Of a DNA stretch of 64,000 nucleotides, positions 6,140-47,070 are shown one piece after another; within the stretch, counting starts at the first letter, position 1; every line of letters starts with the position of its first letter. Location: NCBI GenBank assembly GCA_965222075.1, contig OZ244937.1:384001-448000 (forward strand), in the 5' to 3' direction. The translations under genes were made by a program, and so were the position numbers. A model generated the notes under the pieces. It was not told the origin of the DNA. It searched no databases and saw only the letters and a list, made by a program, of their open reading frames with translations. Source of the DNA: Candidatus Latescibacterota bacterium. Its GTDB lineage: Bacteria; Latescibacterota; UBA2968; GCA-2709665.

Positions 6140-6577
6140 ATGCCGATGTTTCAGCTTGAGATCGTGACGCCCGAAAAGACGGTTTATTCGGGCAGGGTGG
6201 AGAGCCTGCGGGCGCCCGGCACCGAGGGCGGGTTCGGTGTGCTGGCCGGGCACCATCCGATGCTGGCATCGCTGGATGTGGGGCAGATTATGTTCAGGCC
6301 TGCCTGCCGAGCAGGTGTCGGCGCAGGCAGGGAGGAGGGGGAGGGGCCGAAGGTGGCGGCCACCAGCGGTGGGTTCGCCCAGGTCCAGCGGGATAGTGTG
6401 ACCGTGCTGGCGGAGACGGCCGAGCTGGCCGGGGAGATCGATGTGGCGCGGGCGGAAGCGGCGCGGGACCGGGCGCGGGAGCGGCTGGCCCGGCGGCGGG
6501 AGGCGGAGGTTGATGCGGTACGGGCGGAGATGGCGCTTGTGCGGGCGCTGAACCGGTTGCGGGTGGGGGAACAATGA
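6140..6577 (+). CDS. atpC: ATP synthase subunit epsilon, carrying an 11-aa in-frame palindromic insertion
   Basis: LEIVTPEK, GFGVLAGHHPM, SGGFAQV; extra PACRAGVGAGR encoded by 6299-6331. Confidence 0.95.
   Translation: MPMFQLEIVTPEKTVYSGRVESLRAPGTEGGFGVLAGHHPMLASLDVGQIMFRPACRAGVGAGREEGEGPKVAATSGGFAQVQRDSVTVLAETAELAGEIDVARAEAARDRARERLARRREAEVDAVRAEMALVRALNRLRVGEQ
6299..6331. repeat. 33-bp palindromic insertion element inside atpC
   Basis: CCTGCCTGC-cgagcaggtgtcggc-GCAGGCAGG; removing it gives MFR-EEG in frame. Confidence 0.85.
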
Positions 6578-6610
6578 GGGGATAGCGCGAAGGTTAGCAG
6601 GGAATACCAC

Positions 6611-6644
6611 AGGAGCGGGTTTGAAACCCGCTCCTCTTTTTTTT
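6611..6644 (+). terminator. Rho-independent terminator of the atp operon
   Basis: AGGAGCGGGT-ttgaa-ACCCGCTCCT followed by a T-tract. Confidence 0.8.
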
Positions 6645-7023
6645 GCAGGCAGGGGTGTAAGTGCTTACGCGGAATTGGAGTTCCTCTTTCTGTAAAAATT
6701 GCGTAAATTAAAAGGACGAATGAGGGTCAATAAGCCGCCCTTGCCGGGCGACCTGCCGAAGAAGTGACCAGGCCTCCGGCGATAAGAAAGGCAGGGTGGA
6801 GCGCGACGCAGATCCGCTATGAAGAAGAGTAAGAAGTTGTCATGTGCCCTTTGGGGCACCCATGATGATGAAAAGAGTTGCGTTGGCAGACTTGTACTGT
6901 AACCATACATGCCCTCTCACGCGTTTCGCCTCCCGCGCCTTCGCTGCGGGGTTGAAGGGGCTTTTCCGCGCGGTTCCGTCCAGCGCCTTCGCCTCGGGAA
7001 TCCCCAAGCGCTCGCAGGGCAGA

Positions 7024-7056
7024 CCTGCCTGTGCCGTGCCCGGCACGGCAGACAGG
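7024..7056. repeat. 33-bp palindromic insertion element (variant)
   Basis: CCTGCCTGT-gccgtgcccggcacg-GCAGACAGG; absent at the homologous site 48863/48864. Confidence 0.85.
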
Positions 7057-7138
7057 AGCTCCCGCTTCCACCACAGGCAACACTAACCATTCAAACCAAT
7101 CCAGGCAATTTGCGGAAAAGCAGCCGCCGTCTGAGCGG

Positions 7139-7171
7139 CCTGCCTGCAGCGCGGTGCGCCGCGCAGGCAGG
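7139..7171. repeat. 33-bp palindromic insertion element
   Basis: CCTGCCTGC-agcgcggtgcgccgc-GCAGGCAGG, exact reverse complement of 44431-44463; absent at the homologous site 48924/48925. Confidence 0.9.
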
Positions 7172-7385
7172 CGCCCTTCTTTTTCGGCCTTTTTCTTGGG
7201 CGATCAAGAAAAAGGCCTCGCCGAAGGCATGGGGACGAAGGGCGGGGAGGAGTTGCGGATGACGGAGACCGCGCGGGACTGAGCGACAAGGCCATCTACC
7301 GAAAGGTTATTTTCCAAGCACTAATCGCGTTGGACTCAAATCTGTGCCTCGCAAGCAACGCATCACCAGAGAGAGGACGGCAACC

Positions 7386-7934
7386 ATGGCTATCCCCAAT
7401 CCTGTAGTCAAGTTTACCTGCGAAGACTACCTGAATACGCCGGAAGACAAGCGCTACGAGCTTCTGGACGGAGAATTGATTATGACCCCTGCACCTGGAG
7501 AGCTTCACCAGAGCATTTCCATCCTGCTGGGATCGAAACTGTTTCAATTTGTGGATGAGAACAGCCTGGGGCGGGTGTATAACGCTCCCTTCGATGTGGT
7601 GCTGTCGGATACGGACGTGGTGCAGCCGGACCTGCTCTTCGTCTCCAATGCGCGCGGCCACATTATCACTCCCGAGAATATACAGGGTGCACCGGACCTG
7701 GTTATCGAAATCCTGTCGCCCTCTACGGCCACACGCGACAGGACATTCAAGCGCACACTGTATGCCAGGCACGGCGTGAAAGAGTACTGGATGGTGGACA
7801 CCACCGCAAAAGACATAACGGTTCTGCTGCTCGGTGATCGAGGATTCGAGGTTGTGGACACCTGCGGTGAAGGGGAGGCGTTGACTTCGCCTACATTGCA
7901 AGGCTTCAGATTGAACCTCGACGACATATTCTAA
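7386..7934 (+). CDS. Uma2-family (PD-(D/E)xK) endonuclease
   Basis: RYELLDGELIMTPAP, VQPDLLFV, PDLVIEILSPST..RD, YARHGVKEYW; ATG after GAGAGG. Confidence 0.9.
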   Translation: MAIPNPVVKFTCEDYLNTPEDKRYELLDGELIMTPAPGELHQSISILLGSKLFQFVDENSLGRVYNAPFDVVLSDTDVVQPDLLFVSNARGHIITPENIQGAPDLVIEILSPSTATRDRTFKRTLYARHGVKEYWMVDTTAKDITVLLLGDRGFEVVDTCGEGEALTSPTLQGFRLNLDDIF

Positions 7935-7994
7935 GGTGCCGACAGCACGTTCATTCGTGTCCCGTACCTCTTCTTACAAAACGGAGGTGAAACG

Positions 7995-8201
7995 ATGCGG
8001 CAAGTGGTTCTATATCCAGGAGAAGATGGCTATTGGGTTGCCGAATGCCCCAGTTTGGCGGGTTGTATCAGTCAGGGTGAATCCCGACAGGCAGCGATTG
8101 CCAGCATCAAGGAGGCGATCGAAGCATACATAGCGGCCCTTGAAGACGACGGCCTGCCGGTTCCCGAGGATCGTTTCGAGGCGTTGGTCGTCGCCGTATG
8201 A
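7995..8201 (+). CDS. hicB: HicB-family antitoxin
   Basis: EDGYWVAECPSLAGCISQGES...IKEAI; overlaps the downstream hicA. Confidence 0.85.
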   Translation: MRQVVLYPGEDGYWVAECPSLAGCISQGESRQAAIASIKEAIEAYIAALEDDGLPVPEDRFEALVVAV

Positions 8202-8419
8202 GCGTACTGCCTTTAATTTCAGGGCGGGAGTGCGTCAGAGCGCTCGCCAGAGTCGGGTTTTACATCAGACGACAACGCGGCAGTCACATTGTTTTGCGTC
8301 GTGACGACCCTTTTGCGCAGCTCGTAGTTCCCGACCACCGGGAACTTGACAGAGGAACACTGCGCGCCATCATAAGACAATGCGGCCTGGGTATAGAGGA
8401 GTTCTCCAAGCTATTGTGA
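8198..8419 (+). CDS. hicA: HicA-family mRNA interferase toxin
   Basis: GF..RRQRGSHIVL, VPDHRELDRGTLRAII. Confidence 0.88.
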   Translation: MSVLPLISGRECVRALARVGFYIRRQRGSHIVLRRDDPFAQLVVPDHRELDRGTLRAIIRQCGLGIEEFSKLL

Positions 8420-8671
8420 CTTTCACATTCATGTGCGATAGATTCATAACTGGAAGACGGGAGTTGGTGATGAACTGACAGTTGACAGCGAATTATGTCC
8501 GTAAGGTTGATGTCACTGATCGCCTCAATATACGGATTCGCAGCGCAGAAGGGGACTACAGTATTTCTGTCTGAATTGCGTGCCCGCAGGCGGATTTGCG
8601 GCTACAAGTCAGTGAATCTGCGCCAGGGCTATCCGCTTCTTGAGATCAGGATACCTGAGCAGGTTTGCGCC

Positions 8672-8885
8672 GTGCAAGCAACGTATCACCAGAGAGAGGA
8701 CGGCAACCATGGCTATCCCCAATCCTGTAGTCAAGTTTACCTACGAAGACTACCTGAATACGCCGGAAGACAAGCGTTACGAGCTTTTGGACGGAGAGTT
8801 GATTATGACCCCTGCGCCTGGAGAACTTCACCAGAGCGTTTCCGCCCAGTTAGGGTGGAGATTGGTTCAGTTCGCATCTGAGAAC
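8672..8885 (+). pseudogene. Truncated duplicate of the Uma2 gene 5' region
   Basis: Closely similar to ~7350-7562 (MAIPNPVVKFTYEDYLNTPEDKRYELLDGE...), then breaks off. Confidence 0.85.
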
Positions 8886-8926
8886 CGACGGCACGTTCTT
8901 GCGTGCTCCAGTTAAGGAGGGTTGCC

Positions 8927-11764
8927 ATGAAGCGTCTTTCACTGGTCCTGGTCGCTTTTCTCCTGGGCTGTGCCACCACCCGGAAACAACCAGCCCAGCC
9001 CCCGGCCGCAGAGGAACAAACCGCCAGCCAGGTTTTGCCCGTGGATCCGCAGGTGCTGGTCGGAGAACTGGACAACGGCCTGCGCTACTTTATCCGCAAA
9101 AACCAGAAGCCCGAGAATAGAGCTGCGCTGCGCCTGGCCGTAAACGTGGGCTCCGTGCTGGAGGAGGAGGACCAGCAGGGCCTGGCCCACTTTGCCGAGC
9201 ACATGGCCTTCAACGGCACCGAGCATTTCGCCAAGCAGGAGCTGGTGGACTACCTGGAGTCCATCGGCATGGACTTTGGCCCCGACCTGAACGCCATCAC
9301 CTCCTTTGACGAAACCGTGTACATGCTGACCGTGCCCACCGACAGCGTCGCCATCGTGGAGACAGCCTTCCAGATTCTGGAGGACTGGGCCCACCGGGTG
9401 AGTTACGAACCCGAAGAAATCGACAAGGAGCGCGGCGTGGTCATCGAAGAGTGGCGCCTGGGACAGGGCGCCCAGCAGCGCATGTTCGACCAGCAGGTGC
9501 CGATCCTGCTGAAAGACTCGCGTTATGCCGAGCGTTTGCCGATCGGCCAGAAGGCGGTGCTGGACACCTTTCACCACGAGACCTTGAAAAATTTCTACAG
9601 GACCTGGTACCGCCCGGACCTGATGGGTTTCGTCGCCGTGGGCGATTTTGACCCGGCCTGGATCGATTCACTGGTCCAGGTCTATTTCACCCGCATCCCC
9701 GGGGTCACCGACCCCCAGGAGCGCAAGGTCTACCCCGTGCCCGACCACGAAGAGACCCTGTTCGCGATTGCCACCGACCCGGAGGCCACCTACAACAGCG
9801 TCAATATCTACTACAAGCAGGACGTGCGCCAGCAGGGTACGGTGGCGGCCTACCGGCAGTCGCTGATCGAGGATCTCTACCACCTCATGTTCAACAAACG
9901 CCTGAATGAATTGACCAGGTTGCCCGAGCCCCCCTTCCTCTACGGCTACTCCGGCCGGGGGCGCCTTCTGCGCTCCAGGGAGTTTTTCATCCTGGGCTCC
10001 AGTGTCTGGAACAACGGCTTTGACGCAGGCCTGGAGGCCCTGTTGACCGAGTCGGCCCGGGTGCGACAGTTCGGTTTCACCCGGTCCGAACTGGAGCGGG
10101 AAAAAAAGGATGTGCTGCGCGGCATGGAGCAGGCCTACCGTGAGCGCGACAAGAGCCAGTCCGGCGGCTTTGCCAGCGAGTACGTGCGCCACTTCCTCAC
10201 CGGGGAGCCCATACCCGGGATCGAGAAGGAGTACGCCCTCTACCAGGAACTGGTACCCGCCATCGAGCTGGGGGAGGTAAACGCCCTGGCCAGCGAGTGG
10301 ACCAGCACCCGGAACCGGGTCATCACCGTGAACGCGCCGGAGAAGGAGGGGCTGGAGGTGCCGGACGAGGAGGATCTGCTGGCGGTATTCGCCCGGGTGG
10401 ATCAAAAGGAAATAACCCCGTATGAAGACGCGGTTTCGGACGACCCCCTGGTGGCCCAGGTGCCGGAGCCGGCCGCCATTGTCGAGCGCGGCGAGATCCT
10501 CGAAATCGGCGTGATCCGGTGGGTTCTGGCCAATGGGGTCCGGGTCTTTCTCAAACCAACCGATTTCAAGAACGACGAGATCCTCTTTACCTCCTATAGT
10601 CCGGGCGGGCATTCGCTGGTGCCGGACCAGGACTACGTGGCGGCGATGACAGCCTCGTCCGTGGTGGGGGAAGGCGGCGTGGCCGGCTTCAACCAGATCA
10701 AGTTGCAGAAAAAGATGGCGGGCAAGGTCGTGGGGGTGTCGCCGTGGATCGGCGGTCTTGAGGAGGGTATCTCCGGCTCGGCCTCTCCCGAAGATATGGG
10801 CACCATGTTCGAGCTGATCTACGCCTACTTCACCAGCCCGCGCCAGGACAGCACCGCCTTCCAGGCCTACCAGACCCGGGTGAAGGGTTTTATCCAGAAC
10901 CGCAGCGCCGCGCCCCAGGCTGCCTTTGTCGATACCATCCAGGTGACCATGGCCCAGTACCACTTCCGGGCGCGGCCCTGGTCGACCGCACTGCTGGATG
11001 AGATGGATCTGGAGACCTCCATGGCGGTCTACCAGGAGCGCTTCGCGGATGCGGGCGACTTTACTTTCTTCTTCGTGGGGAATTTTACTCTGGAGGGGAT
11101 CGAACCCCTGGTGCGGACCTACCTGGGCGGCCTGCCCAGCAGCGGGCGGCAGGAAAACTGGAAGGATGTGGGCATCGAAGCGCCGCAGGGCGTGGTGGAG
11201 AAGAGGGTCTATCGCGGCATCGAACCCAGGAGCCAGTCGCAGCTTATATTCACCGGTCCCTTTGAATACGATGGGTGGCGGAACAACTTTGAGTTCGACG
11301 CCATGACCACGGTTCTCCAGATCAAGCTGCGGGAGGTGCTGCGGGAGGATCTGGCAGGCACCTACGGGGTGCGGGTGGGGGGCAGCGTTTCGCAGTTCCC
11401 GGATCAGGAGTACCACATCAACCTGGGTTTCGGCTGCGACCCGGAACGGGTTGAAGAGTTGACCCGGGTCATCTTCACCCAGATCGACAGTCTTCAGAAC
11501 TTCGGCACCACCGACCTCTACATCAACAAAGTAAAGGAGATGCGCAAGCGCAAACGCGAGGTGGACCTGAAGGAAAACGGCTTCTGGATCAATGTCCTGA
11601 AATGGACCGACTCCCAAGGGATTGACCCGCGCTTGCTGCTTGAGTACCCGGAGTTGGTCGACAGCCTGACCAGCGAAGCGGTGCAGGCGGCGGCAAAGCG
11701 CTACTTCAATATGGACAACTACGTCCGGGTGGTGCTCTATCCGGAGGACATGACCGAACAATAG
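8927..11764 (+). CDS. M16 family zinc peptidase (PqqL-like), probable lipoprotein
   Basis: Lipobox LLGC; inverted zinc motif HFAEH; ELDNGLRYFI; second M16 half LANGVRVFLKPTDFK. Confidence 0.92.
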   Translation: MKRLSLVLVAFLLGCATTRKQPAQPPAAEEQTASQVLPVDPQVLVGELDNGLRYFIRKNQKPENRAALRLAVNVGSVLEEEDQQGLAHFAEHMAFNGTEHFAKQELVDYLESIGMDFGPDLNAITSFDETVYMLTVPTDSVAIVETAFQILEDWAHRVSYEPEEIDKERGVVIEEWRLGQGAQQRMFDQQVPILLKDSRYAERLPIGQKAVLDTFHHETLKNFYRTWYRPDLMGFVAVGDFDPAWIDSLVQVYFTRIPGVTDPQERKVYPVPDHEETLFAIATDPEATYNSVNIYYKQDVRQQGTVAAYRQSLIEDLYHLMFNKRLNELTRLPEPPFLYGYSGRGRLLRSREFFILGSSVWNNGFDAGLEALLTESARVRQFGFTRSELEREKKDVLRGMEQAYRERDKSQSGGFASEYVRHFLTGEPIPGIEKEYALYQELVPAIELGEVNALASEWTSTRNRVITVNAPEKEGLEVPDEEDLLAVFARVDQKEITPYEDAVSDDPLVAQVPEPAAIVERGEILEIGVIRWVLANGVRVFLKPTDFKNDEILFTSYSPGGHSLVPDQDYVAAMTASSVVGEGGVAGFNQIKLQKKMAGKVVGVSPWIGGLEEGISGSASPEDMGTMFELIYAYFTSPRQDSTAFQAYQTRVKGFIQNRSAAPQAAFVDTIQVTMAQYHFRARPWSTALLDEMDLETSMAVYQERFADAGDFTFFFVGNFTLEGIEPLVRTYLGGLPSSGRQENWKDVGIEAPQGVVEKRVYRGIEPRSQSQLIFTGPFEYDGWRNNFEFDAMTTVLQIKLREVLREDLAGTYGVRVGGSVSQFPDQEYHINLGFGCDPERVEELTRVIFTQIDSLQNFGTTDLYINKVKEMRKRKREVDLKENGFWINVLKWTDSQGIDPRLLLEYPELVDSLTSEAVQAAAKRYFNMDNYVRVVLYPEDMTEQ

Positions 11765-11791
11765 AGCACCCCCCTTCAGGAAACCGCACCT

Positions 11792-14320
11792 ATGAACGAA
11801 GCCACAGCGCGTATCAAGATCAACAAGCTGCTCGAAGCAGCCGGGTGGCGCTTTTTCGACGAAGCGGACAAACCCGCCAATATTTGTCTCGAACCGAGTG
11901 TCAAGATCGGGAGGTCCGACCTTGACGCATTGGGCGACAATTTCGAGAAGACGACCGGCTATATCGATTTTCTCCTGTTGGACGACAGAGGCTTGCCTCT
12001 GATCGTGTTAGAGGCCAAGTCGGAGGAGAAGCAGCCGCTGGTGGGAAAGGAACAGGCACGGAAGTACGCCCGCTCGCAGAACTGCCGGTTTGTTATTCTC
12101 TCGAATGGCAATCTGCATTATTTCTGGGACCTCGAACGCGGCAATCCGTACATCATCACTTCGTTCCCGACGCCGGAGTCGGTGAGTGGCTACAACAAGG
12201 TCAGGCCCGACCCAAAGCGCTTGATCGATGAGCAGATCCGTGAGGATTACATCGTTCTTTCCCAGCGGCCCAATTATGCTTCCGAAGCGGCGTGGAAGAA
12301 CGAAGCCGAACGGCCCGGCTTCATCAAAGCCCACAAGCTGCACTTTCTGCGTGCGTATCAACTGAAAGCCATTCACGCGCTGCAGCGGGCGGTGAAAGAC
12401 GGCAACGACCGGTTTCTGTTCGAGATGGCTACGGGTACGGGTAAGACGCTGGTGGCGGGAGCGATTATCAAGCTCTTTCTGCGCTCCGGCAACGCCTCTC
12501 GGGTGCTGTTCCTGGTGGACCGCCTCGAGCTGGAGGAGCAGGCCAGGAAGGTCTTCGCCGCCTTGTTATCAGCGGACTTTCGGACGGTGGTTTACAAAGA
12601 GAAACGCGACGACTGGCGCTCAGCGGAGATCGTTGTTACCACCGTCCAGTCGCTGCTGTTCAACAACAAGTACCAGGCGCTCTTCTCGCCGACTGATTTC
12701 GATCTCGTGATTTCTGACGAAGCGCATCGGTCCATCAGTGGCAATGCCCGGGCGGTGTTCGACTACTTCGTCGGGTACAAGCTGGGCCTTACCGCGACGC
12801 CTCGAGACTACCTGAGGGGATTTGGCAAGACCGGCCCCAATGTTCACACCCCTCGTGAGGTTGAGCGGAGGCTGTTGCTCGACACGTACCGCACATTTGG
12901 GTGCGAGAGCGGGCAGCCCACGTTCAGGTACTCGCTGCTCGATGGCGTGAAGGACGGCTATCTGATCAATCCTACGGTGGTGGACGCCCGCACCGAGGTG
13001 ACTACCCAATTGCTTGCAGATGACGGTTTCGTGGTCTCCTTCACCGACGATACGGGGGAGGAGCAGGATGAGACGTTCAGGCAGCGCGAGTTTGAGAAGC
13101 GTTTCTTCTCCGATGCAACCAACCAGGTTTTCTGCAAAACGTTTCTTGAGCATGCGCTGCGCGATCCCGTCAGTGGCGAAGTCGGCAAGTCCATCGTTTT
13201 TGCGGTCAGCCAGAACCACGCGGCCAGGCTGACGCAGACTCTCAATGAGATGGCCGATGTCATGTTTCCGGGCAAGTATCAATCGGACTTCGCCGTGCAG
13301 GTCACCTCGCAGATACCGGATGCTCAGCAGTTCACGATCAACTTTGCCAACAACAATCTGCTGGGATCGGACAATTTTCTCTCCGCCTACCGGACGAGCA
13401 AAGCGCGGGTTTGTGTGACGGTTGGGATGATGACCACCGGCTACGACTGCACCGATATTCTGAATCTGGGTCTGTTTCGGCCCATTTTCTCACCTACCGA
13501 CTTCATCCAGATCAAAGGGCGCGGCACGCGGACACACAGCTTCCTGGAGCAGGTACTCGATTCAAGCCTGGCGGAGGGTGTGGTCCAGCCCGATAAGACC
13601 GCGTTCAAGCTGTTCGATTTCTTTGGCAACTGCGAGTACTTCGAGACCGCGTTCGACTACGACGAGGTGTTGAAGCTGCCTGTCTATAAAGATGTCCGTG
13701 AGAGAGGGGGCGGGGAATCGCCCGGCTCCGACGCAGGCGCCTACGCGTACCTGGGCAGGGACATCCTCTCCACGATCGGGGAGGAGACCATCGGTTCGGA
13801 GGGGATGAAGATCGACCGCATGTTCTTTGAGAAGTTCGAGGATGCCGTGCGACAGGACGAGGTCATCGCAGCAGCCGTCGAGGCCGGGCAGTGGGACCGG
13901 GTGATCGACTATGTCAACCAGGAGGTTTTCGACCGGCCCGAGGAGTATTACACCCTGGCCAAGCTGCGCCAGGCCGCGGCCGTGGACCGCCGCCTCACTT
14001 TGCGCGAGATTCTGGAGAAGGCGTTCGGGCTGATCCCGCATTTCAAATCCAGGGACGAAATGCTGGAGGAGGAATTCGCCAAGTTCGTGGCTGACTATAC
14101 GCCCGAAGAGGTCGCGTCCATCCCGGCGATCAAGACGTATTTCAAGGCGTACGTGACGAGCGACCAGATCCGCCACATTATCGAAAACCGGCATTTCACC
14201 GACCTGGCCACCAACCCGGTTTTCTCTACGCAGGACCTGCGCGCCGTGCCGGAAAAATACCGCGGCCTTGTTCCCGAGTACGTCAAGGATTATGTGCCGT
14301 TGAACCAGTTTGCTGCATAG
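11792..14320 (+). CDS. hsdR: Type I restriction enzyme R subunit (HsdR, DEAD-type translocase)
   Basis: Nuclease motif IDFLL..VLEAK; MATGTGKT; DEAHRS; GLTATP; QIKGRGTR. Confidence 0.92.
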   Translation: MNEATARIKINKLLEAAGWRFFDEADKPANICLEPSVKIGRSDLDALGDNFEKTTGYIDFLLLDDRGLPLIVLEAKSEEKQPLVGKEQARKYARSQNCRFVILSNGNLHYFWDLERGNPYIITSFPTPESVSGYNKVRPDPKRLIDEQIREDYIVLSQRPNYASEAAWKNEAERPGFIKAHKLHFLRAYQLKAIHALQRAVKDGNDRFLFEMATGTGKTLVAGAIIKLFLRSGNASRVLFLVDRLELEEQARKVFAALLSADFRTVVYKEKRDDWRSAEIVVTTVQSLLFNNKYQALFSPTDFDLVISDEAHRSISGNARAVFDYFVGYKLGLTATPRDYLRGFGKTGPNVHTPREVERRLLLDTYRTFGCESGQPTFRYSLLDGVKDGYLINPTVVDARTEVTTQLLADDGFVVSFTDDTGEEQDETFRQREFEKRFFSDATNQVFCKTFLEHALRDPVSGEVGKSIVFAVSQNHAARLTQTLNEMADVMFPGKYQSDFAVQVTSQIPDAQQFTINFANNNLLGSDNFLSAYRTSKARVCVTVGMMTTGYDCTDILNLGLFRPIFSPTDFIQIKGRGTRTHSFLEQVLDSSLAEGVVQPDKTAFKLFDFFGNCEYFETAFDYDEVLKLPVYKDVRERGGGESPGSDAGAYAYLGRDILSTIGEETIGSEGMKIDRMFFEKFEDAVRQDEVIAAAVEAGQWDRVIDYVNQEVFDRPEEYYTLAKLRQAAAVDRRLTLREILEKAFGLIPHFKSRDEMLEEEFAKFVADYTPEEVASIPAIKTYFKAYVTSDQIRHIIENRHFTDLATNPVFSTQDLRAVPEKYRGLVPEYVKDYVPLNQFAA

Positions 14321-14327
14321 GGAACAT

Positions 14328-14471
14328 GGATAGACAGGATAGACAGGATAGACAGGATAGACAGGATAGACAGGATAGACAGGATAGACAGGATAGACAG
14401 GATAGACAGGATAGACAGGATAGATAGGATAGACAGGATAGATAGGATAGACAGGATAGACAGGATAGACA
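14328..14471 (+). repeat. Tandem array of 16 x 9-bp GGATAGACA (units 11 and 13 are GGATAGATA)
   Basis: Counted directly; it is an expanded left arm of repeat family B. Confidence 0.95.
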
Positions 14472-14481
14472 GGATGAGAAG

Positions 14482-14919: not shown

Positions 14920-14936
14920 TCAGAAGACGGGAGTTA

Positions 14937-15372: not shown

Positions 15373-15420
15373 AGTACATCATTTGCCGTTGTACACGCAC
15401 AATTCGTCATTGATGCGCAG

Positions 15421-38626: not shown

Positions 38627-38660
38627 GACGTGCGAATGCCCTTCTCTTGAAAGAAATGCC

Positions 38661-39581: not shown

Positions 39582-39686
39582 CAGCACGGTTCGCGCTGCG
39601 CCGCCCTTCATCCCTCGGCGTCGCGTCTATGCTCACATCAGCTTACATCTCTGCCTTCGCAGGTTGATGCCGACTATCCGTTACCT
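39576..39686 (+). other. attC-like site 3 (degenerate)
   Basis: GGCTAAC...CTGCG/CGCAG...GTTACCT; CACGTCGGCTAAC is the exact reverse complement of the cassette start GTTAGCCGACGTG. Confidence 0.6.
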
Positions 39687-39710
39687 CAACAACTGGCCTC
39701 TTCTTAACAA

Positions 39711-39767
39711 ACAGATATTGAGCATATCGTAGCGCTCAGCGAAGCCCACGATAGCGGTCTGTGCGCT
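39711..39767 (+). pseudogene. Short remnant of an HNH/DUF1524-type nuclease
   Basis: Translates to TDIEHIVALSEAHDSGLCA. Confidence 0.5.
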
Positions 39768-39778
39768 TATCCGGACTC

Positions 39779-39890
39779 TGTCAAGAGGCGAGTGGGTGTG
39801 GGGTGACGAGAAAGATGGATAAACAGGATAGACAGGATGAGAACTGAAAACCCTGAAATCCTGTTCATCCTGTCCATCCATGTGAATAAA
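39779..39890. repeat. Junction segment plus family B hairpin
   Basis: TGTCAAGAGGCGAGTGGGTGTGGGGTGACGAG...ATGGATAAACAGGATAGACAGGAT...ATCCTGTCCATCCATGTGAATAAA. Confidence 0.88.
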
Positions 39891-39907
39891 ACAGAAGACG
39901 GGAGTTG

Positions 39908-40201
39908 GTGATGACCAGACAGTTGACAGCAATTATCGAACGCGAAAACGATGGCTACATCGTCCTCTGCCCTGAGTTGGACATCGCAAGTCAGGGAGCA
40001 ACCGTGGCTGAGGCTCGGGAAAATTTGAAGGAGGCATTGGAGTTGTTTTTCGAGACGGCTTCAGCCACCGAAATTCAGCAGCGGCTGCACGAGGAAGTGT
40101 ACGTAACGCAGGTGGAGGTCGCAGTTGGCCAGACTCCGGCGGATGGAGGGGAGGATTCGGGCGGCGATTGGGCGGATGTGGGGGACGAGAAAGATGGATA
40201 A
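39908..40201 (+). CDS. hicB: HicB-family antitoxin (copy 3); hicA deleted, frame runs into the junction repeat
   Basis: Closely similar to copies 1 and 2 up to VAVG; stop TAA replaced by CAG. Confidence 0.75.
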   Translation: MMTRQLTAIIERENDGYIVLCPELDIASQGATVAEARENLKEALELFFETASATEIQQRLHEEVYVTQVEVAVGQTPADGGEDSGGDWADVGDEKDG

Positions 40202-40269
40202 AGAGGATAGACAGGATGAGAACTGAAACCCCTGAAATCCTGTTCATCCTGTCCATCCATGTGAATAAA
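40143..40269. repeat. hsdS-3'-like segment plus family B hairpin
   Basis: Encodes MEGRIRAAIGRMWG followed by the full hairpin. Confidence 0.88.
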
Positions 40270-40283
40270 TTTGGTGTGACAGA

Positions 40284-40343
40284 GCAGAGGCTGTTCGGGA
40301 ATTGCCCCAACACGGGTGGTGGTTGCCCGGGCACCGGGCGGGT
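40284..40343 (+). repeat. ~60-bp direct repeat of 32029-32088
   Basis: GCAGAGGCTGTTCGGGAATTGC.CCAACACGGGTGGTGGTTGCCCGGG. Confidence 0.85.
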
Positions 40344-41380
40344 CAGACGCCGGTGAAGGCTTTGGCTTTGTCCTCTGTTTTGGGCGGTCGTGTGGGGCGG
40401 GCGGCGCGCAGTTCGCCCCAGAGGGCGATGGCGATGCCCGCGAGGATGATGCCGCCGCCGATGAGCTGGGCGGGCATGGGTACCTCGCCCAGGATGAGGC
40501 CGGCGAAGAGCACGCCGGCGACCGGTGAGAAGGACGACGCGGTGGCAATGTCGGCGGGGCGCACCCGCTTGATGCCTGCAAACCACGCCAGTTGGCCACA
40601 GGCCACCACGATCCCACCGTAGAGGATCATCCAGCCCCAGAGCAGGGGGGAAAAAACGTCGGCGAAGTGTTCAAGTCCGAAGAAGAAGAGGCCGAGTCCG
40701 AAGAAGAAGAGCGCGCCCACCAGGTTGCGGAAGACACTGAAGACGCCCAGCGGGATGGTCTGGAGTTGCTTGCGGCCGATCTCGGCGCCGCAAACGAGGA
40801 GTACGGTAGCGGCCAGGGCGAGGAATTCACCGCTGCCCACCCCGCTTTGCATGCGCGCTGCCGCCATGCGCTCGGGCGACGCGCCCGTCTGCAGGATGAG
40901 GGTTGTGGCCACGCCGCCGACGGCGCACAACGCCCCCAGTACCGCGCTTCCACTCGACTTTTCCCGGTAGAGCATCCAGGCCAACAACAGGCCGAGGGGG
41001 ATTTCCACCGTCTCGATCAGGACGATATTGGTGATGGAGGTGCGGGAGATGGCCGTAAACATCATGGCCGGAGCTATCGCGCCGGAAGTCAGGGCCAGGG
41101 CTGTCTGTACCAGCCACTGCCGGCGCGACAGGGAGCGCAGGCCTGCCTGCCGCGCGGGGCTTGGCGCAGGCAGGCGCGCAGGGCGCCATTCCCGGTGATT
41201 GAGGGCCAACAGGGTCAGCGCCGCCACGAGGTTGCCAGCGAAAAGCAGGTTGCAAAAGGAGATGGGATTGCGGCCGTCTATCAGATGGGCCTCGCCGATT
41301 TCGACCAGGCGGGCTACCACCGGCGCGGCGGCGGCGAAGATCAATATGGCAATCCACAGATAGGTTCGTCCCCAGGTCAT
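40343..41380 (-). CDS. DMT/EamA family transporter with a 33-bp in-frame insertion
   Basis: About ten TM segments, ILGEVP..QLIGGGIILAGI; insert LPAPSPARQAG. Confidence 0.87.
   Translation of the reverse strand: MTWGRTYLWIAILIFAAAAPVVARLVEIGEAHLIDGRNPISFCNLLFAGNLVAALTLLALNHREWRPARLPAPSPARQAGLRSLSRRQWLVQTALALTSGAIAPAMMFTAISRTSITNIVLIETVEIPLGLLLAWMLYREKSSGSAVLGALCAVGGVATTLILQTGASPERMAAARMQSGVGSGEFLALAATVLLVCGAEIGRKQLQTIPLGVFSVFRNLVGALFFFGLGLFFFGLEHFADVFSPLLWGWMILYGGIVVACGQLAWFAGIKRVRPADIATASSFSPVAGVLFAGLILGEVPMPAQLIGGGIILAGIAIALWGELRAARPTRPPKTEDKAKAFTGV
41142..41174. repeat. 33-bp palindromic insertion element inside the DMT gene
   Basis: CCTGCCTGC-cgcgcggggcttggc-GCAGGCAGG. Confidence 0.87.
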
Positions 41381-41409
41381 CTCTTTCCCGATCTCGCAAA
41401 ATGCAGCAT

Positions 41410-42717
41410 CTATGGGATGTTGAGGGACCGCCGCACGGCGCCGTGTATCCGGTCTTCGGTGGCTGCCACGTAGGGCCCCGTGCGTTTCCAGTATTGCTGG
41501 CTGAACCAGACTTCGTAGCCGCCTTCGGGGATCTGACGTTTGACGGGGACATAGCCGACGATGTTGTTCGTATAGGCCATAACCAGAACGTTGTCAAAGT
41601 GAGGGCCCAGTTCCCTTTTCAGGCGCAGGCCGTGCTCCACGGTCATTTCCGCGGCGAGCGTGACCAGGGCCAGAGCGTTGCCGAAACGCGCGGTTTGAAC
41701 TTCGAATGGGATGGTCGTGGGGACGGGGATATTGCTTTCAACGCATTCGAGCAGGTGTTGCGCCCAGGCCCGGACAAACGCCCGGTCGTCATTCAGGCTG
41801 ATTTTTACCAGGTCCATGTCGATGGGTTCGGTTTCCAGGCCGAGGATGGTCTGGTTGACGGAAATCGGACCGGTTACCGGCTGGAGGGCATCGGAGGCGA
41901 CGATGCGGGCCACGGATTGGCCCAACCGGACGCCGATGTCACGGATTTCACCGATGTCCCGCGGTACGAAAACCTCCGACGCGGGGTCGACGGGTTCTGT
42001 TTTTTGATCTCCGGCGCAGCCCTGGAGGAAAAAGGCGGTGACACCGGGGTCGATTGCTTCCACGTGGTCATAGGCAAAACAGACGTAGTCGCCGCCGATG
42101 AGGGTGCCGCTGCGGCTGGTGGGATGACACGCATAGCTGAAGATGACGCTTCGAAGCCCGCCGTCGGGAGATTCAACGACAAGGACGGGCACGTCGTGGT
42201 CGTGAGGCGCTTCGACACAGGGTTTCCACTCGACGCAGCCTTTGCCGTCGGGCTTTCGGCGGGATACGGCGATATCACATTTTCCGGTCCCAAAACGAAG
42301 ACGCGCGGAACGCCGGGTTTCCCAGGCCGCACTTGCGCAACGGGTGACCCTGTCCATAAGTGCCTCGATGTACTTCTCGTCCAGTTCGCCGTGGCGGTGG
42401 CGGTCCATTTCCCGGATGCAGGGGCCGCAGTGGGTGTGCGATCCGCTGAGGATGATGGCGGCGGGTTCGATGCCTGTGGCGGCGGCAATGCGGGATCGCA
42501 CCTGGTCCGTGCGTTCATAGAAGCCGAGGATTTCAGCGCTGACGATGAGCAAAGGGGTTGTGCCGTCGTCTATGGCGATGGCGTTGGCTTTCAGGGGATG
42601 GTAGACGGCTGTGGAGGGTTCCTTGCGGGCGGCGAATCCAGCCAGATGGATGCCGACCGGCGGCGTGATGTCTGCGCCACCGACGCCGATGCGGTAGGTG
42701 TGGTTGGACAGCGACAT
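41410..42717 (-). CDS. Neutral/alkaline ceramidase-like hydrolase
   Basis: DITPPVG..LAGF..R, SHTHCGP, YACHPT, FLQGCAGD, GYVP..EGGYE. Confidence 0.8.
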   Translation of the reverse strand: MSLSNHTYRIGVGGADITPPVGIHLAGFAARKEPSTAVYHPLKANAIAIDDGTTPLLIVSAEILGFYERTDQVRSRIAAATGIEPAAIILSGSHTHCGPCIREMDRHRHGELDEKYIEALMDRVTRCASAAWETRRSARLRFGTGKCDIAVSRRKPDGKGCVEWKPCVEAPHDHDVPVLVVESPDGGLRSVIFSYACHPTSRSGTLIGGDYVCFAYDHVEAIDPGVTAFFLQGCAGDQKTEPVDPASEVFVPRDIGEIRDIGVRLGQSVARIVASDALQPVTGPISVNQTILGLETEPIDMDLVKISLNDDRAFVRAWAQHLLECVESNIPVPTTIPFEVQTARFGNALALVTLAAEMTVEHGLRLKRELGPHFDNVLVMAYTNNIVGYVPVKRQIPEGGYEVWFSQQYWKRTGPYVAATEDRIHGAVRRSLNIP

Positions 42718-42798
42718 ACAAAATGCTCCTTATCGGTAGATACCCGGGTCCAACTGTTCTTTTGCTCCTGGCCTTTTTGTCCGCAATACCCGTTGGAT

Positions 42799-44019
42799 TT
42801 ATTCCTTTTTTTGAAATACTGCGTTCCAATCAATACGCGCGGTGAATTGCATGGCGGCGAACAGGGTGATAATGCACAACAGGGTAATGGTCAAGCCCGT
42901 GTAGCCGGAAAAGAAAAAGGTGTATGAAAACAGCACGAGGTAAACGAATTGTCCCAGGCCAATTTCTACGAAAGCCAGGCGCGTGCCCAGGACCAGCCGC
43001 ATATACGAGGTCACGAGAAAAATGGAGACCGCCGAGGCAAGGACAAAGGCGTAGTGAATGATCAGATGGTCAACCAGATAGGCCAGCAACAGGTGGAAAC
43101 TGAAAAAGGCGGCACCGATGAAGAAATAGTGCATCGGGTGCAGATTGAGGCCGCGCACGATGGCAAAGATAAAGAGTAGAAAGAAAAAGAGAAAGAGGGA
43201 AATCGGAGCGGCGGAGACGACCTGGCTGACCCAGGGACCGGGATTGAGACGGGCCGGCAGGATCATCCCTATGTCAATACCGGTGAGCAGGTGGTCGTAA
43301 TGCCACGTCAGGGTCCAGGCATCGCCATTACGGGTTTTGGCGGTGGGGGACATGCTATCCTGGGGAAAGTCAATGGCGTCGAAGTCGGTACGCATCACCA
43401 GCTCGAAGTCCGATACCTGGTTGACATGGTGCCCAAAACTGTACCGCCATTGATCCATGCCCTGCGAGCGATAGGACAGGGCGATGGTTTGTTCCTGCCC
43501 GGGGTGCAGATGGATCGATTGGATGAGATGCCCGGCGCGAATCGGAAGATCGTCAACGGGCTGCTCGTCAACGGTTAGCGTGAACGCATCGTACACGGCG
43601 CGAGGTGCGGGCAGTTCCAAATCGAAGTCCACGGTCAGGCTCTGGTCGGTGGTATTGCTCAAGGTGTACGAGGCCGCGAATTGGACTTGATAGGTTGCGT
43701 ACCACAGCAAGCCCTTGCGCCGGTGCTCCAGGCACAGGTCAACTTCAATGCGACTGGCCTTCATCGTCAGAAAGCGTTTTTCTTCTACTGTGCGCAAGAT
43801 GGCTTCACCCATGGCATTGGTTTCGATATGGGTGACGCGATCCAACTGGTAGATTTGCGGTGCCTGCTGCGTCTGCGCCGTACCCCAGAGGTGCCCCACG
43901 GCACTTTTGAGCTTGTCGTCCTGTTTCTCAGTGCGGAAGTGGACGGTTTCACTCAAAATAACCCAGCCGACTGTTATGCAAAGGTAAATAAAGCCAATGG
44001 CGGCAATGCGTTGTACCAT
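42799..44019 (-). CDS. CreD-like inner membrane protein
   Basis: N-terminal TM, periplasmic domain, LHPMHY..IGAAF..FHLLL.YL and C-terminal TM bundle. Confidence 0.7.
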   Translation of the reverse strand: MVQRIAAIGFIYLCITVGWVILSETVHFRTEKQDDKLKSAVGHLWGTAQTQQAPQIYQLDRVTHIETNAMGEAILRTVEEKRFLTMKASRIEVDLCLEHRRKGLLWYATYQVQFAASYTLSNTTDQSLTVDFDLELPAPRAVYDAFTLTVDEQPVDDLPIRAGHLIQSIHLHPGQEQTIALSYRSQGMDQWRYSFGHHVNQVSDFELVMRTDFDAIDFPQDSMSPTAKTRNGDAWTLTWHYDHLLTGIDIGMILPARLNPGPWVSQVVSAAPISLFLFFFLLFIFAIVRGLNLHPMHYFFIGAAFFSFHLLLAYLVDHLIIHYAFVLASAVSIFLVTSYMRLVLGTRLAFVEIGLGQFVYLVLFSYTFFFSGYTGLTITLLCIITLFAAMQFTARIDWNAVFQKKE

Positions 44020-44060
44020 AGCAATTTATCCGTACTGTCAGAGCGGCATCCCTGCCGCGA

Positions 44061-45092
44061 TCACCTTGTCAGGTTGACCACAACCCTGCCTTTTTGTCCG
44101 CCCCGTAAGATGCGTTGTATTTCGGGTTCGAGGGTTTCCAGCGTGCGTTCCGTAACCAGGCGGTGCAACGCGTCGATTTTCCAGGGCCCCGCGATTTTTT
44201 GCCACAGGTATATTCGTTCGGGCATGGGACATTCGGCGGAGTCGATGCCATGGAGGCTGACGCCCCTCAGGATGAACGGATAGACGGTGGTGTTGAGATC
44301 GGCGGAAGCAACGAGGCCGCAGCATGTGACAATGCCGCGGTGCCGTGTGGACTTGAGGGCGGTTGCCAGGATGTTGCCCCCCGCGGTATCCACGACGCCT
44401 GCCCAGCGTTCCTTCAAGAGTGGCCGTCCACCTGCCTGCGCGGCGCACCGCGCTGCAGGCAGGTCGGCATCGTTGACGACATTTCGATCCACGACTGCGG
44501 TCGCGCCGAGGTCGTACAGGAACTGCGCCTCGTGGGTCTTGCCTGTGGCGGCGACAACCGTGTAACCCAGCTGGGCGAGGATAGCGACGGCGAGGCTGCC
44601 GACGCCGCCGGTGGCGCCGGTGACGAGGATCTCGCCGTGGTCGGGAGCAACGCCGTGGTGTTCCAGTTTGCGTACGGACATGGCGGCGGTGAATCCGGCG
44701 GTGCCGCAGGCCATGGACTCGCGTAAGGTGAGACCGTGGGGCAGCGGGACGATCCATCCGGCAGGCACGCGGATGTACTGGCCGAATCCGCCGGGTGTGT
44801 TCATGCCCAGGTCGTAGCCTGTGACGATGACCTCGTCGCCGGGTTGGAAGTTGTCATCCGCGCTTTCTTCCACAACGCCGGAGGCGTCGATGCCGGGCGT
44901 ATGCGGATAGCGCCTGGTGACGCCGCGGTGGCCTGTGGCGGAGAGGGCGTCTTTGTAGTTGAGGGAGGAGTAGTGGGTCCTGATCAGGACATCGCCCGGG
45001 GGCAGGTCATCGATGGATGGGTGCTCGACGCGTCGAACATAGGCGTCGTTCTCGTGGTGCACGACCAGAGCTTTGAAGCTTTGATGCGACAT
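44061..45092 (-). CDS. YhdH/AcuI family quinone oxidoreductase (acryloyl-CoA reductase-like) with a 33-bp insertion
   Basis: YSSLNYKDAL, GTAGFTA, TGATGGVGS, PFILRGVSL.GIDS; insert LPAARCAAQAG. Confidence 0.92.
   Translation of the reverse strand: MSHQSFKALVVHHENDAYVRRVEHPSIDDLPPGDVLIRTHYSSLNYKDALSATGHRGVTRRYPHTPGIDASGVVEESADDNFQPGDEVIVTGYDLGMNTPGGFGQYIRVPAGWIVPLPHGLTLRESMACGTAGFTAAMSVRKLEHHGVAPDHGEILVTGATGGVGSLAVAILAQLGYTVVAATGKTHEAQFLYDLGATAVVDRNVVNDADLPAARCAAQAGGRPLLKERWAGVVDTAGGNILATALKSTRHRGIVTCCGLVASADLNTTVYPFILRGVSLHGIDSAECPMPERIYLWQKIAGPWKIDALHRLVTERTLETLEPEIQRILRGGQKGRVVVNLTR
44431..44463. repeat. 33-bp palindromic insertion element inside the yhdH/acuI-like gene
   Basis: CCTGCCTGC-gcggcgcaccgcgct-GCAGGCAGG. 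Confidence 0.9.
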
Positions 45093-45123
45093 AGGCGGTT
45101 CCGTGTGTGACGCTGTGGCATTT

Positions 45124-46263
45124 TCAGGATAGGAATCGTGTGATTTGATAGGCGTCGATATCGGTTGTGAGGTCTTTGTTCAGCATGAGGTCGGCGATGA
45201 GTTTGCCGCTGTACGGGCCCAGCTGCAGGCCGGTGGGCCCATGCCCGGTTGCGAGGTAGACGTTCCGGATGTTGGGGACGGGTCCGAGTACGGGCAGGAA
45301 GTCTTCCGTGCAGGGGCGCAGGCCAACGCGAATTTCACGGATTTCAGCCGCGGCCAGGCCGGGCGCCACCCGGAGCGCTTCGGCGAGGACCTCCCGGACC
45401 CCGGCGGCCGTGGTGTGGGGTTCGAAACCGGATCCGGTTTCGCGCGTGGCGCCGACGACCACCCGATTGTCCGGCCAGGGCACCATGTAGTGGCCGCGAA
45501 GGGCGTTGATGATGCACCACGACGAAGTATCGGTGGTGGCGGGCAGGCCCAGGTGGATGATCTGACCGCGCTGGGGTTCTACAGGGATGTGAACGCTCAG
45601 CTGGTGGCCGAATGCGTGCGACCAGGCGCCGCCAGCGATCGCCACCTTGCCGGCTGAGATGGTCCGGCCGTCCGTGATGACACCGGTTACCGAGTCGTTT
45701 TCGGTGCGCAAGTGTTCAACGCTGGCGTGTTCGACGGCGAGTCCCCGGGCCTCGGCGGCACGGCGCAGGGCGGCTGTCAGGAGTCGGCCGTCAACGCGGG
45801 CGGCCTCACGGTAGTAGATGGCGCCCCGGACGTGGGCCAGGGCGGGGAAGCGGTTGCGGGCTTCTTCGGATGAGATTTCGTAGAGGTCTGCGGCAGCGGG
45901 CTCGCCGCGGTGACTCCGGCGGTTGAAAATGCGCCGGCGGGCAATGGCAAAGGGTTGCAGTTCGTCGTCCGAGACGGCGACGATCATCATGCCGCAGGTT
46001 GCAAAGCCGGTCTCGCCGTCCTGTTCGGCCCGCAGATTTTCGATCAGTCCGGGATAATATTTGACGGCAAGGGAGGCCAGACGCAGCCACGGGTCCGGGT
46101 CGCGGGTATTGGTGGCGGGAGACAGAATGCCCGCGCCCGCGTCGGTGGCGCGACCCGTGTCTTTCCGGTCGATGAGCAGGGTTCTGGCGCCGTCGCAGAC
46201 CAGGTGGTAGGCGGTGGACATGCCAACGATGCCGCCGCCGATGACAATGGCGTCATAAATCAT
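45124..46263 (-). CDS. FAD-dependent oxidoreductase (D-amino acid dehydrogenase/glycine oxidase family)
   Basis: MIYDAIVIGGGIVG, ATDAGAG, GLRP, ATGHGPTGL; the longer ORF upstream is repeat DNA. Confidence 0.9.
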   Translation of the reverse strand: MIYDAIVIGGGIVGMSTAYHLVCDGARTLLIDRKDTGRATDAGAGILSPATNTRDPDPWLRLASLAVKYYPGLIENLRAEQDGETGFATCGMMIVAVSDDELQPFAIARRRIFNRRSHRGEPAAADLYEISSEEARNRFPALAHVRGAIYYREAARVDGRLLTAALRRAAEARGLAVEHASVEHLRTENDSVTGVITDGRTISAGKVAIAGGAWSHAFGHQLSVHIPVEPQRGQIIHLGLPATTDTSSWCIINALRGHYMVPWPDNRVVVGATRETGSGFEPHTTAAGVREVLAEALRVAPGLAAAEIREIRVGLRPCTEDFLPVLGPVPNIRNVYLATGHGPTGLQLGPYSGKLIADLMLNKDLTTDIDAYQITRFLS

Positions 46264-46344
46264 TTTCGTCCTGTTCATCCATGTGAATAAAACGGAAGAG
46301 GGGAGCCGGTGATAACCGGACAGCTGCTTGGAAAATAGGCTTTG

Positions 46345-46670
46345 GGTCTCCGTCATCCCCAACCCCTCCACACCCCATGCCTTCGGCGAGGCCTTTTTCT
46401 TGATCGCCCAAGAAAAAGGCCGAAAAAGAAGGGCGCCGCTCAAACGCCGCGGGGGCTGCTTTTCCGCGAACCGTCCCTGTGGTGGAAACGGGCGTTTGTG
46501 CCCTGCGAACCTTTGGGGTGTTGCTGGACGGTGTTGCTGGACGGAAACGCGCGGAAAAGCCCCATCCCCCCGCACCAGCCCGCAGGCGCGCCGGTAGGGG
46601 GGTCGCAGAGACAAGACGCGGCAACGATTTTCATCATTATGGGTGCCCCGAAGGGGGCATGACAACTGCT
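46345..46670 (-). repeat. Repeat family A, copy 2 (inverted, no 33-bp insertions)
   Basis: Reverse-complement similarity to 6831-7270. Confidence 0.85.
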
Positions 46671-46777
46671 TTAAACATACGATACACCTCAGGTATTGGC
46701 AATAGAATTGTTGGAAATTTTCAGGGGACGGGTAACGGACGGACGGGGTGAAGACCTCGCCGAAGGCATGGGGATGA

Positions 46778-47070
46778 AGGGGCGGTTCGCGAACCGCCCC
46801 TACGGGATGGTGGATGTGGACGGGGTTTGGATTGTCGTAGTAGGGGCAACCCTCGTGGTTGCCCTTTCCCTGCGGGCGAGACGCCCATGCTCCCGGGAGC
46901 ATGACGGCCTTGTCCGACCATACCCTACCCCAACATGCGGGCGAGATCTGTCTGCCTGCGACGCACAGGCAGGCGCCCGCGCTCCCAGGGGGTCTCTTCT
47001 CACACAAACTGACAGTTTGTGCTACTGCCTGCCGAGCAGGTCCCGGTCTGCGTCATCGACGTCAGGCAGG
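46778..47070. repeat. Cluster of REP-like palindromes from several families
   Basis: GGGGCGGTTCGCGAACCGCCCCTAC (46778-46803), GTAGGGGCAACCCTCGTGGTTGCCCT (46840-46865), CACAAACTGACAGTTTGTGCTAC (47003-47025), 27-bp insert 46947-46973; 46878-46991 duplicated at 49175-49261. Confidence 0.8.

Follow-up and report, generated by a model that had tools for sequence, protein, structure and literature searches.

Short palindromic hairpins inserted in frame into protein-coding genes and at exact sites in repeats of a Candidatus Latescibacterota genome

Five copies of a 33-bp palindrome lie in genes and repeats of a 64-kb window

The DNA considered here is a stretch of 64,000 nucleotides (hereafter the window; G000:C1:384001-448000) from a single-contig genome, G000, of 5.36 Mb and 59% G+C, whose closest named relatives in a comparison of AtpC proteins are Candidatus Latescibacterota metagenome-assembled genomes (MAGs). 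Our subject is a short palindromic element that is found within protein-coding genes and within dispersed repeats of this window. An earlier reading of the letters alone (the sequence-only reading) had placed five 33-bp copies of it at positions 6299, 7024, 7139, 41142 and 44431. When we searched the window with the pattern CCTGYCTG-N(9-30)-CAGRCAGG, we recovered exactly these five, every one of them 33 bp long, and the pattern had no match in 100 dinucleotide shuffles.

Three of the five copies lie in frame in genes. The first (6299..6331, plus strand) is in atpC (6140..6577, plus strand), which encodes the epsilon subunit of ATP synthase, and adds the residues PACRAGVGAGR to a protein of 145 amino acids, whose relatives have about 132-134. 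The second (41142..41174, plus strand) adds LPAPSPARQAG to an EamA/DMT transporter of 345 amino acids encoded on the minus strand (40343..41380). The third (44431..44463, minus strand) adds LPAARCAAQAG to a YhdH/AcuI-like dehydrogenase of 343 amino acids with ADH_N and ADH_zinc_N domains (44061..45092, minus strand). Read in the orientation of the element, these three copies follow CAGG, CAGG and CCGA, respectively.

The copy in the dehydrogenase gene is the exact reverse complement of the one at 7139..7171 (plus strand), which represents the commonest variant (22 copies). The latter sits in a dispersed repeat of ~200 bp, as does the copy at 7024..7056 (plus strand), a T-type copy with the 3' arm CAGACAGG. 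Two further forms that had been reported are also present: a 27-nt variant (TCTGTCTG...CAGGCAGG; 46947..46973, minus strand), inserted in a second dispersed repeat, and a longer relative, which measures 47 nt (47024..47070, no strand assigned), appears as a degenerate or compound form (ACTGCCTG...CAGGCAGG) and adjoins a palindrome, CACAAACTGACAGTTTGTG.

The inserts are absent from relatives, and sites are filled or empty to the base

The in-frame segments of atpC, the DMT gene and yhdH/acuI had been taken to be additions to otherwise normal genes, and orthologues from related genomes bear this out. None of 39 AtpC orthologue loci carries PACRAGVGAGR, and the closest has an exact gap of 11 residues (tblastn). 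At the DNA level, the empty atpC site reads TTTTCAGG^GAGGAG in G004, an 8.1-Mb genome of the same family that is the closest relative by AtpC. LPAPSPARQAG is missing from the single close orthologue found of the EamA/DMT gene, and LPAARCAAQAG from all four orthologous copies found of the YhdH-like gene. The same is true of the inserts in PurL, SSB, AcrB and a UvrA-like protein (two sites), which are absent from every orthologue found in five genomes; a genome of the same genus, G001, is without them at 93-96% protein identity. Altogether, empty alleles were found for all eight of the coding inserts tested, each of which is an exact addition of 27-60 nt with no other repeat surrounding it. The in-gene inserts are recent and in frame. 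Among 31 relatives, the copy number is patchy, ranging from 0 to 238, and the reversed-pattern control gave 0.

Filled and empty versions of a site also occur together in the window, within sister copies of dispersed repeats. Three such pairs had been proposed and all are exact to the base: the filled 7024 site is matched by the empty site gcagggcaga^agct at 48863..48864, the filled 7139 site by gagcgg^cgccc at 48924..48925, and the site of the 27-nt variant at 46947-46973 by gcgaga^cgccc at 49242..49243. The first two pairs belong to the ~200-bp repeat, an intergenic sequence (GGGGCTTTTCCGCGCGG ... GGCGCCCTTCTTTTTCGGCCTTTTTCTTGGGCG) found in the window at 6900-7260 and 48780-49000 and in ~53 copies in the genome. 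Of the 39 copies scored, GAGCGG^CGCCC is empty in 26 and filled in 13, and all 13 filled copies have the same 33-mer at the same site in the same orientation. The ~200-bp repeat may be a mobile element itself, with the hairpin as its passenger in these 13 copies. The third pair belongs to the second dispersed repeat, of at least 73 nt (window 46874-46946 and 49170-49242), whose two copies here are 97% identical and which has about eight copies in the genome.

Copies of the element are also found inside one another. Seventeen inner copies are nested in others, and removing any of them restores the outer element; in 10 of the 17, the restored outer sequence is also found intact elsewhere. When the 229 non-nested copies of the genome-wide census (see below) were clustered by their flanks, they fell into 146 contexts, 124 of which were unique, and one cluster held 49 copies. 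About one-fifth of copies are passengers of larger repeats or nested, which had not been foreseen. No flank base is repeated in 177 of the 229 copies, that is, there is no target duplication, and this extends to the genome what had been claimed from the window pairs. These data show precise insertion without target duplication into intergenic DNA, into genes and into the element's own copies.

In two WD40-repeat paralogues (G000:C1:1034264 and 2284786), different 33-nt variants occupy the same position near the C-terminus. Either this site was hit twice, or the core was exchanged in place.

Lengths step in threes and stop codons are scarce, also outside genes

A census of G000 with cores of 3-30 nt gave 248 matches, of which 229 were non-nested, and 113 distinct sequences. 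A wider search (cores of 3-60 nt) gave 292 matches, including 93 of 33 nt, 50 of 27 nt, 19 of 30 nt, 17 of 25 nt and 13 of 36 nt. Genes were called with a simple, self-trained, purpose-written gene finder, whose rough calls comprise 3679 genes and make 82% of the genome coding. By these calls, 159 of the non-nested copies are intergenic, 67 lie inside predicted genes and three lie on gene edges, so that the intergenic 18% of the genome holds 69% of copies.

Multiples of three make up 183 of the 229 copies: 63 of the 67 in genes, two of the three on gene edges and 118 of the 159 in intergenic DNA (genic versus intergenic, Fisher p = 4e-4). The corresponding figures for distinct sequences are 44/48 in genes and 59/83 between them. 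As the sequence-only reading had claimed from a handful of copies, the bias thus reaches beyond genes, and so does the lack of stop codons: in 147 of the 159 copies between genes, no frame of the six is interrupted by a stop. By comparison, shuffling the cores gives 84 +/- 6 such copies, random palindromic cores give 107 +/- 5.5, and segments drawn at random from intergenic DNA 28 +/- 5.

The three-base steps and the lack of stop codons in non-coding copies suggest that the element itself has been selected to do no harm on translation. With 82% of the genome coding, lineages of the element that are stop-free in every frame and a multiple of three in length would leave more surviving copies. 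Survival of such coding-compatible lineages would in turn explain why intergenic copies have the same two properties.

The element is a bulged hairpin that inserts 3' of a degenerate tetranucleotide

The element is a single bulged hairpin of 19-39 nt, mostly 27, 30 or 33, with no gene inside. It has a basal stem of 7-9 bp, a one-sided bulge of 2-3 nt, an upper stem of 4-6 bp and a loop of 3-5 nt. The folding energies of the copies range from -7 to -15.5 kcal/mol, and for 37 of the 106 distinct variants the fold is better than that of 95% of shuffles of their own core. The base of the stem is conserved (CCTGCCTG ... CGCAG(G/A)CAGG) and the upper stem and loop vary, in agreement with the earlier description of conserved arms around a variable core. 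The element is asymmetric in that one end is always CGCAG(G/A)CAGG, and this end was used to orient copies.

For the target we analysed 112 unique-flank copies oriented in this way. The left flank prefers C at -4 (73%), C or A at -3 (53% and 26%), G or C at -2 (51% and 26%) and A or G at -1 (49% and 37%). Insertion is found 3' of C-(C/A)-(G/C)-(A/G), or C-M-S-R, the commonest left tetranucleotides being CCGA (23/112) and CAGG (8/112). The right flank is nearly free, with constraint only at +1 (pyrimidine) and +2 (not T). Because the left tetranucleotide is also present at empty orthologous sites, it belongs to the target rather than to the element. The last four bases of the element, CAGG, fit the same C-M-S-R motif.

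In-gene copies favour one phase

The 67 in-gene copies lie in 60 genes, 49 of which have Pfam domains (E <= 1e-5), and 52 of the 63 in-frame copies are in hosts with this support. Such hosts include AtpC, PurD, PurL, a class I Glu/Gln tRNA synthetase and SSB. Further hosts are a double-length UvrA-like protein, a UvrD-type helicase, FeoB, an Omp85 protein, two AcrB pumps, a Cas4-Cas1 fusion, HsdR and HsdS. Twenty-five of the 67 copies are within the first or last tenth of the protein, and the orientation of the element relative to the gene strand has no clear bias (32 vs 25).

The in-frame copies are distributed over phases 0, 1 and 2 as 18 : 8 : 37, compared with an expectation of 22%, 41% and 37% from a target model built on the intergenic copies (p = 2.5e-5). 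In the depleted phase the element reads A-C-L...R-Q-A, and in the favoured phase x-L-P-A...Q-A-G. This bias, drawn from small numbers of non-independent copies, fits selection on the translated peptide: in-gene inserts would be translated, and selection would act on what they encode. In an AlphaFold model of AtpC (27-sequence alignment, mean pLDDT 87.5), the insert is placed in a loop between strands 48-54 and 71-75, with pLDDT below 50 at residues 59-66, that is, a low-confidence loop.

Genes of repair, replication and defence are often hosts: the UvrA-like gene and the UvrD-type gene (two sites each), SSB, HsdR, HsdS and the Cas4-Cas1 fusion gene (G000:C1:2496660-2498483), whose in-frame copy is 30 nt long.

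Thirteen sequencing runs contain at least half of the sampled words of window positions 40000-49999. Short-read contigs of runs X3, X8 and X11 and of the RNA run X19 end at repeats, and no contig of X19 spans an element. One short-read contig of X8 (window 40442-41267) spans the DMT copy with 24 gap letters; this gap may be a shorter allele in another population.

Related copies occur in many phyla and in viral contigs

More than 10 phyla, and viral contigs as well, contain the arms of the element and some identical 27-33-mers, a spread that the sequence-only reading had not foreseen. A search of 185,579 species genomes with a stricter pattern gave at least 118 stretches, 80 of which were kept. 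These come from many phyla, and 63 of the 80 have lengths that are multiples of three, compared with 40% expected by chance. Viral contigs gave 57 stretches, 48 of them multiples of three, and one viral 33-mer is identical to a G000 copy. Among the matches listed, an identical 30-mer occurs in MAGs labelled Patescibacteria, Kaiserbacteria, Bacteroidales, Fibrobacteres, delta-proteobacterium and Saprospirales. MAGs of Planctomycetota and Acidobacteria, and one labelled 'delta proteobacterium', have copies as well. A Kaiserbacteria MAG has a 27-mer identical to the copy in a molybdopterin-dehydrogenase gene of G000, and a Verrucomicrobia MAG has 114 copies, the main 33-mer of which is one base off a G000 variant. 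Mis-binned contigs could inflate this list of phyla; yet one of the genomes is a complete chromosome.

Copies were counted in 25 genomes of other phyla, which say nothing about overall frequency because each was chosen for having a match. They have 1-114 copies each, and the reversed control gave none in 24 of them and one in G047. Four genomes of the candidate phyla radiation have copies that lie in frame, and in the favoured phase, in transketolase-like, Mur-ligase, TsaD and NusA genes. One more copy from this radiation (phase 1) is in a reading frame with an amino-acid-kinase domain, and Pfam confirms all five hosts. The Saprospiraceae and Verrucomicrobia genomes sampled carry their copies in stretches that lack long open frames, and the flanks of these copies are often shared.

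A spread over more than 10 phyla, including viral contigs and genomes of the candidate phyla radiation smaller than 1 Mb, is unexpected, because repetitive extragenic palindromes (REPs) are described as species-specific. The ends shared across phyla point to a conserved mobilising activity. The family is, besides, a natural supply of small loops inserted into essential proteins, such as ATP synthase epsilon, NusA, TsaD, SSB and PurL.

The element resembles several known systems and differs from each in some features

REPs and the paired REPs known as REPINs are, like the element, bulged palindromes of 20-40 nt that are high in copy number and mostly intergenic (PMC3733652, PMC3479197, PMC6006769), and they are thought to move via an HUH tyrosine enzyme on single-stranded DNA. 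Binding by their REP-associated tyrosine transposase (RAYT) needs a mismatch bulge, and IS200/IS605 enzymes cut after a specific tetra- or pentanucleotide (PMC3479197). REPs are found inside genes in several species, many of them replication or repair genes (PMC3733652), and some copies of the present element are likewise in genes, including those of UvrA, UvrD and SSB type. The apparently frequent repair, replication and defence hosts in G000 echo that bias.

Unlike REPs and REPINs, the element is without an unpaired GTAG/GTGG or CGTC tag, its hairpin starting at the first base, and it is beside no RAYT gene in the loci examined. It is not species-specific, identical 27-, 30- and 33-mers being found in several phyla and in viral contigs; its lengths step in threes, and its copies are stop-free in six frames. 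Also unlike REPINs, it mostly forms single hairpins rather than inverted pairs. REP superfamilies that span phyla have been defined by their GTAG or CGTC tags, and CGTC-tagged REPs, too, are without a dedicated transposase (PMC3733652), whereas here whole sequences, and not only a tag, are common to phyla. Hairpins with a 5' foot CnGA lie beside class 3 TnpA_Y1 genes and reach ~600 copies in Solibacter usitatus; this class is reported mainly from Planctomycetes, Acidobacteria and Proteobacteria (Quentin et al. 2018, PMC6006769), groups that overlap with the labels of MAGs bearing the element. As described, this foot resembles the CCGA flank, where the tetranucleotide comes from the target, and the available part of the supplementary REP table of PMC6006769 holds no CAGGCAGG.

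Rickettsia palindromic elements (RPEs; PMC10969869, PMC3733652) are likewise in-frame palindromic selfish DNA in unrelated working genes, with no known enzyme. They are ~100-150 bp long and encode a conserved peptide of tens of residues, compared with 27-36 bp, 9-12 residues and varying cores here. They also differ in host phylum, and the present element has its target and its filled and empty sites resolved to single bases. With IS200/IS605 insertion sequences (IS608, ISDra2; PMC3479197, PMC6006769) the element shares insertion 3' of a tetranucleotide in one orientation and without target duplication, ends formed by hairpins with irregular stems, and a right end that resembles the target. Unlike them, it has no internal transposase gene, uses one hairpin as both ends and has a degenerate target.

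In miniature inverted-repeat transposable elements mobilised by DDE enzymes, the arms would correspond to the inverted repeats, but the present element makes no target duplication and is far smaller. Hairpin inserts of tens of bases, nested or in genes, also include the very small dispersed repeats of cyanobacteria and the GC clusters or 'byp' elements of fungal mitochondria, from which ours differs in organism and sequence.

A literature search, with many subscription papers and preprint supplements outside its reach, found no published description of the element. Among the matches listed, literal fragments of it were primers or similar strings, and a paper on Latescibacterota and sponges mentions palindromes only in connection with CRISPR. 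In-gene REPs and RPEs are already known; what is new is how broadly the element is spread, that its lengths step by three bases and that its design is free of stops.

A hairpin probably moved in trans, and the search for its enzyme

What could move such an element? We think it probable that it is a gene-less, non-autonomous mobile element, consisting of a single hairpin that is moved in trans as single-stranded DNA by an HUH/Y1-type enzyme. Such an enzyme would cut 3' of C-(C/A)-(G/C)-(A/G) in the left flank and 3' of the terminal CAGG, which is the pattern of IS200/IS605. By this analogy an HUH mechanism is likely, and the single-strand route is favoured mainly because an irregular hairpin inserts 3' of a tetranucleotide without duplication. 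The sequence-only reading had already suggested an HUH/Y1 enzyme; the oriented C-M-S-R target and the nearly free right flank speak for the suggestion, whereas no flanked Y1 or RAYT gene was found in the genomes examined, and no clear replication-strand bias was seen.

Several observations weigh against this account. The target motif is weak and degenerate, and the bases at -1 and +1 tend to be complementary (139/229), a pairing for which the model does not account. IS200/IS605 elements usually favour the lagging-strand template, but 93 copies are co-oriented and 119 anti-oriented with replication (p = 0.09, with origin and terminus placed from GC skew alone), and no clear bias is seen. Since many copies are related to each other, the statistics on copies overstate their independence.

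The search for an enzyme adds to these points. The earlier remark was that no mobilising enzyme is visible in the window; none was identified in the whole genome either, and a RAYT or TnpA gene flanked by the arms, for which it had been proposed to look, was not found in any genome examined; no enzyme could be linked to the element. In G000, Y1_Tnp (PF01797) is represented by one intact IS200 gene, with end hairpins of another kind and none of the arms within 3 kb, and by one broken copy, 150 bp from which lies a single element of 25 nt. The genome also has two RAYT-like genes, of 255 aa (G000:C1:3242104-3242871) and 202 aa (~1858864-1859472), which came to light only in searches with the protein of a relative or with NF047646. 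Both score below the curated NCBIfam cut-off, and no element is near either of them. The 255-aa gene has orthologues in G009 (217 copies of the element), G017 (21 copies; the gene has a stop codon) and G012 (15 copies), with no element beside them. No orthologue was found in G003 (133 copies), G002 (92), G018 (64) or G021 (100), and in G021 the Y1 search found merely two broken fragments. Across the 31 relatives, Y1_Tnp/IS200 numbers do not track element numbers; G004, for instance, has 32 Y1_Tnp matches, 28 of them full-length and IS200-like, and two elements. All 25 of the element-bearing genomes from other phyla had RAYT-like matches, and so did six of 14 control genomes. The 30 best RAYT-like loci of those 25 genomes contain no element in 84.7 kb.

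Y2_Tnp (PF04986) was considered as a mobiliser as well, and the search of G000 gave a broken fragment only.

A classical REPtron was seen in G013-G015 (L190-L192, L201), where a 208-aa RAYT gene lies within an array of its own GTGG-tagged REP (GGCAGACA-TTCC-TGTCTGCC). The stem of this REP shares 9-mers with the arms of the studied element.

Alternatively, the element could be inserted by a non-HUH or novel enzyme, either a conserved host nuclease or recombinase or one borne by phages. We consider this less likely. The genomes examined have no Y1 or RAYT gene flanked by the element, and G021 carries its 100 copies with no intact Y1 gene found; the CGTC-tagged REPs (PMC3733652) offer a precedent for such a lack. 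Identical 27-33-mers in different phyla and viral contigs also fit, in that an enzyme of this sort would account for the persistence of the same arms in so many phyla. Against this, insertion of a bulged hairpin 3' of a tetranucleotide without duplication is a known signature of HUH enzymes, and RAYT-like matches do accompany the element in all 25 genomes of other phyla, albeit with the matches in controls noted above.

It seems improbable that the hairpins are kept for a benefit to the host, be it as signals for RNA stability or termination or as loops of use to proteins. The host genes are mutually unrelated, the inserts are absent even from the closest relatives, the cores vary and the 32 vs 25 split gives no gene-orientation bias. 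In addition, no T run followed the copies inspected (an untallied impression), unlike in a terminator. This must be set against the excess of copies in the intergenic 18% of the genome (69%), the conservation of the arms across phyla and the phase bias towards one type of peptide, xLPA...QAG, all of which a host function would accommodate.

Fainter still is the prospect that the hairpin rarely or never moves alone and has spread passively, as a passenger of larger repeats or by repeat recombination. Some copies do behave in this manner, as seen in the 13 of 39 scored ~200-bp repeats that share a 33-mer, site and orientation, in the flank cluster of 49 copies and in the many shared flanks of the Saprospiraceae and Verrucomicrobia genomes sampled. 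The unique flanks of 124 of 229 copies, the eight exact gene inserts of 27-60 nt with no surrounding repeat and the exactness of the nested insertions largely refute this explanation for G000. Finally, although the record titles of relatives suggest long-read metagenome assemblies, in which palindromes are error-prone, an origin of the inserts in assembly or polishing is refuted by short-read contigs from three other runs that reach into the yhdH copy and by the same sequences in dozens of independent assemblies.

A broader picture is conceivable, which we put forward as tentative. The copies in different phyla may form one cosmopolitan superfamily of translatable hairpin mini-transposons of 27-36 nt with fixed ends, which cross phyla, are perhaps carried by phages and depend on a conserved enzyme that acts on single-stranded DNA. 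Multiples of three and openness in six frames would then have been favoured by selection on the element, and new copies would persist as protein loops in the essential genes of compact genomes. The insertion events described here are very recent and resolved to the base, with an oriented target, in an element of about the minimal size for a mobile element, and the family provides a defined substrate for finding the mobilising enzyme.

Other features of the locus and genome

The palindrome CACAAACTGACAGTTTGTG that adjoins the 47-nt relative is 19 nt long (window 47003-47021) and has just four copies in the genome, including those at G000:C1:3241571 and 3242911. Two of its copies form part of 100-bp direct repeats on either side of a 1.3-kb cassette, which contains small open reading frames and the 255-aa RAYT-like gene.

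Some of the sequencing runs with a low share of the sampled words, and the RNA run X19, are labelled sponge metagenome, from which we draw no conclusion on habitat. Two abundant repeats, with ~90 and ~50 copies genome-wide, read as putative CRISPR repeats from their k-mer strings alone.

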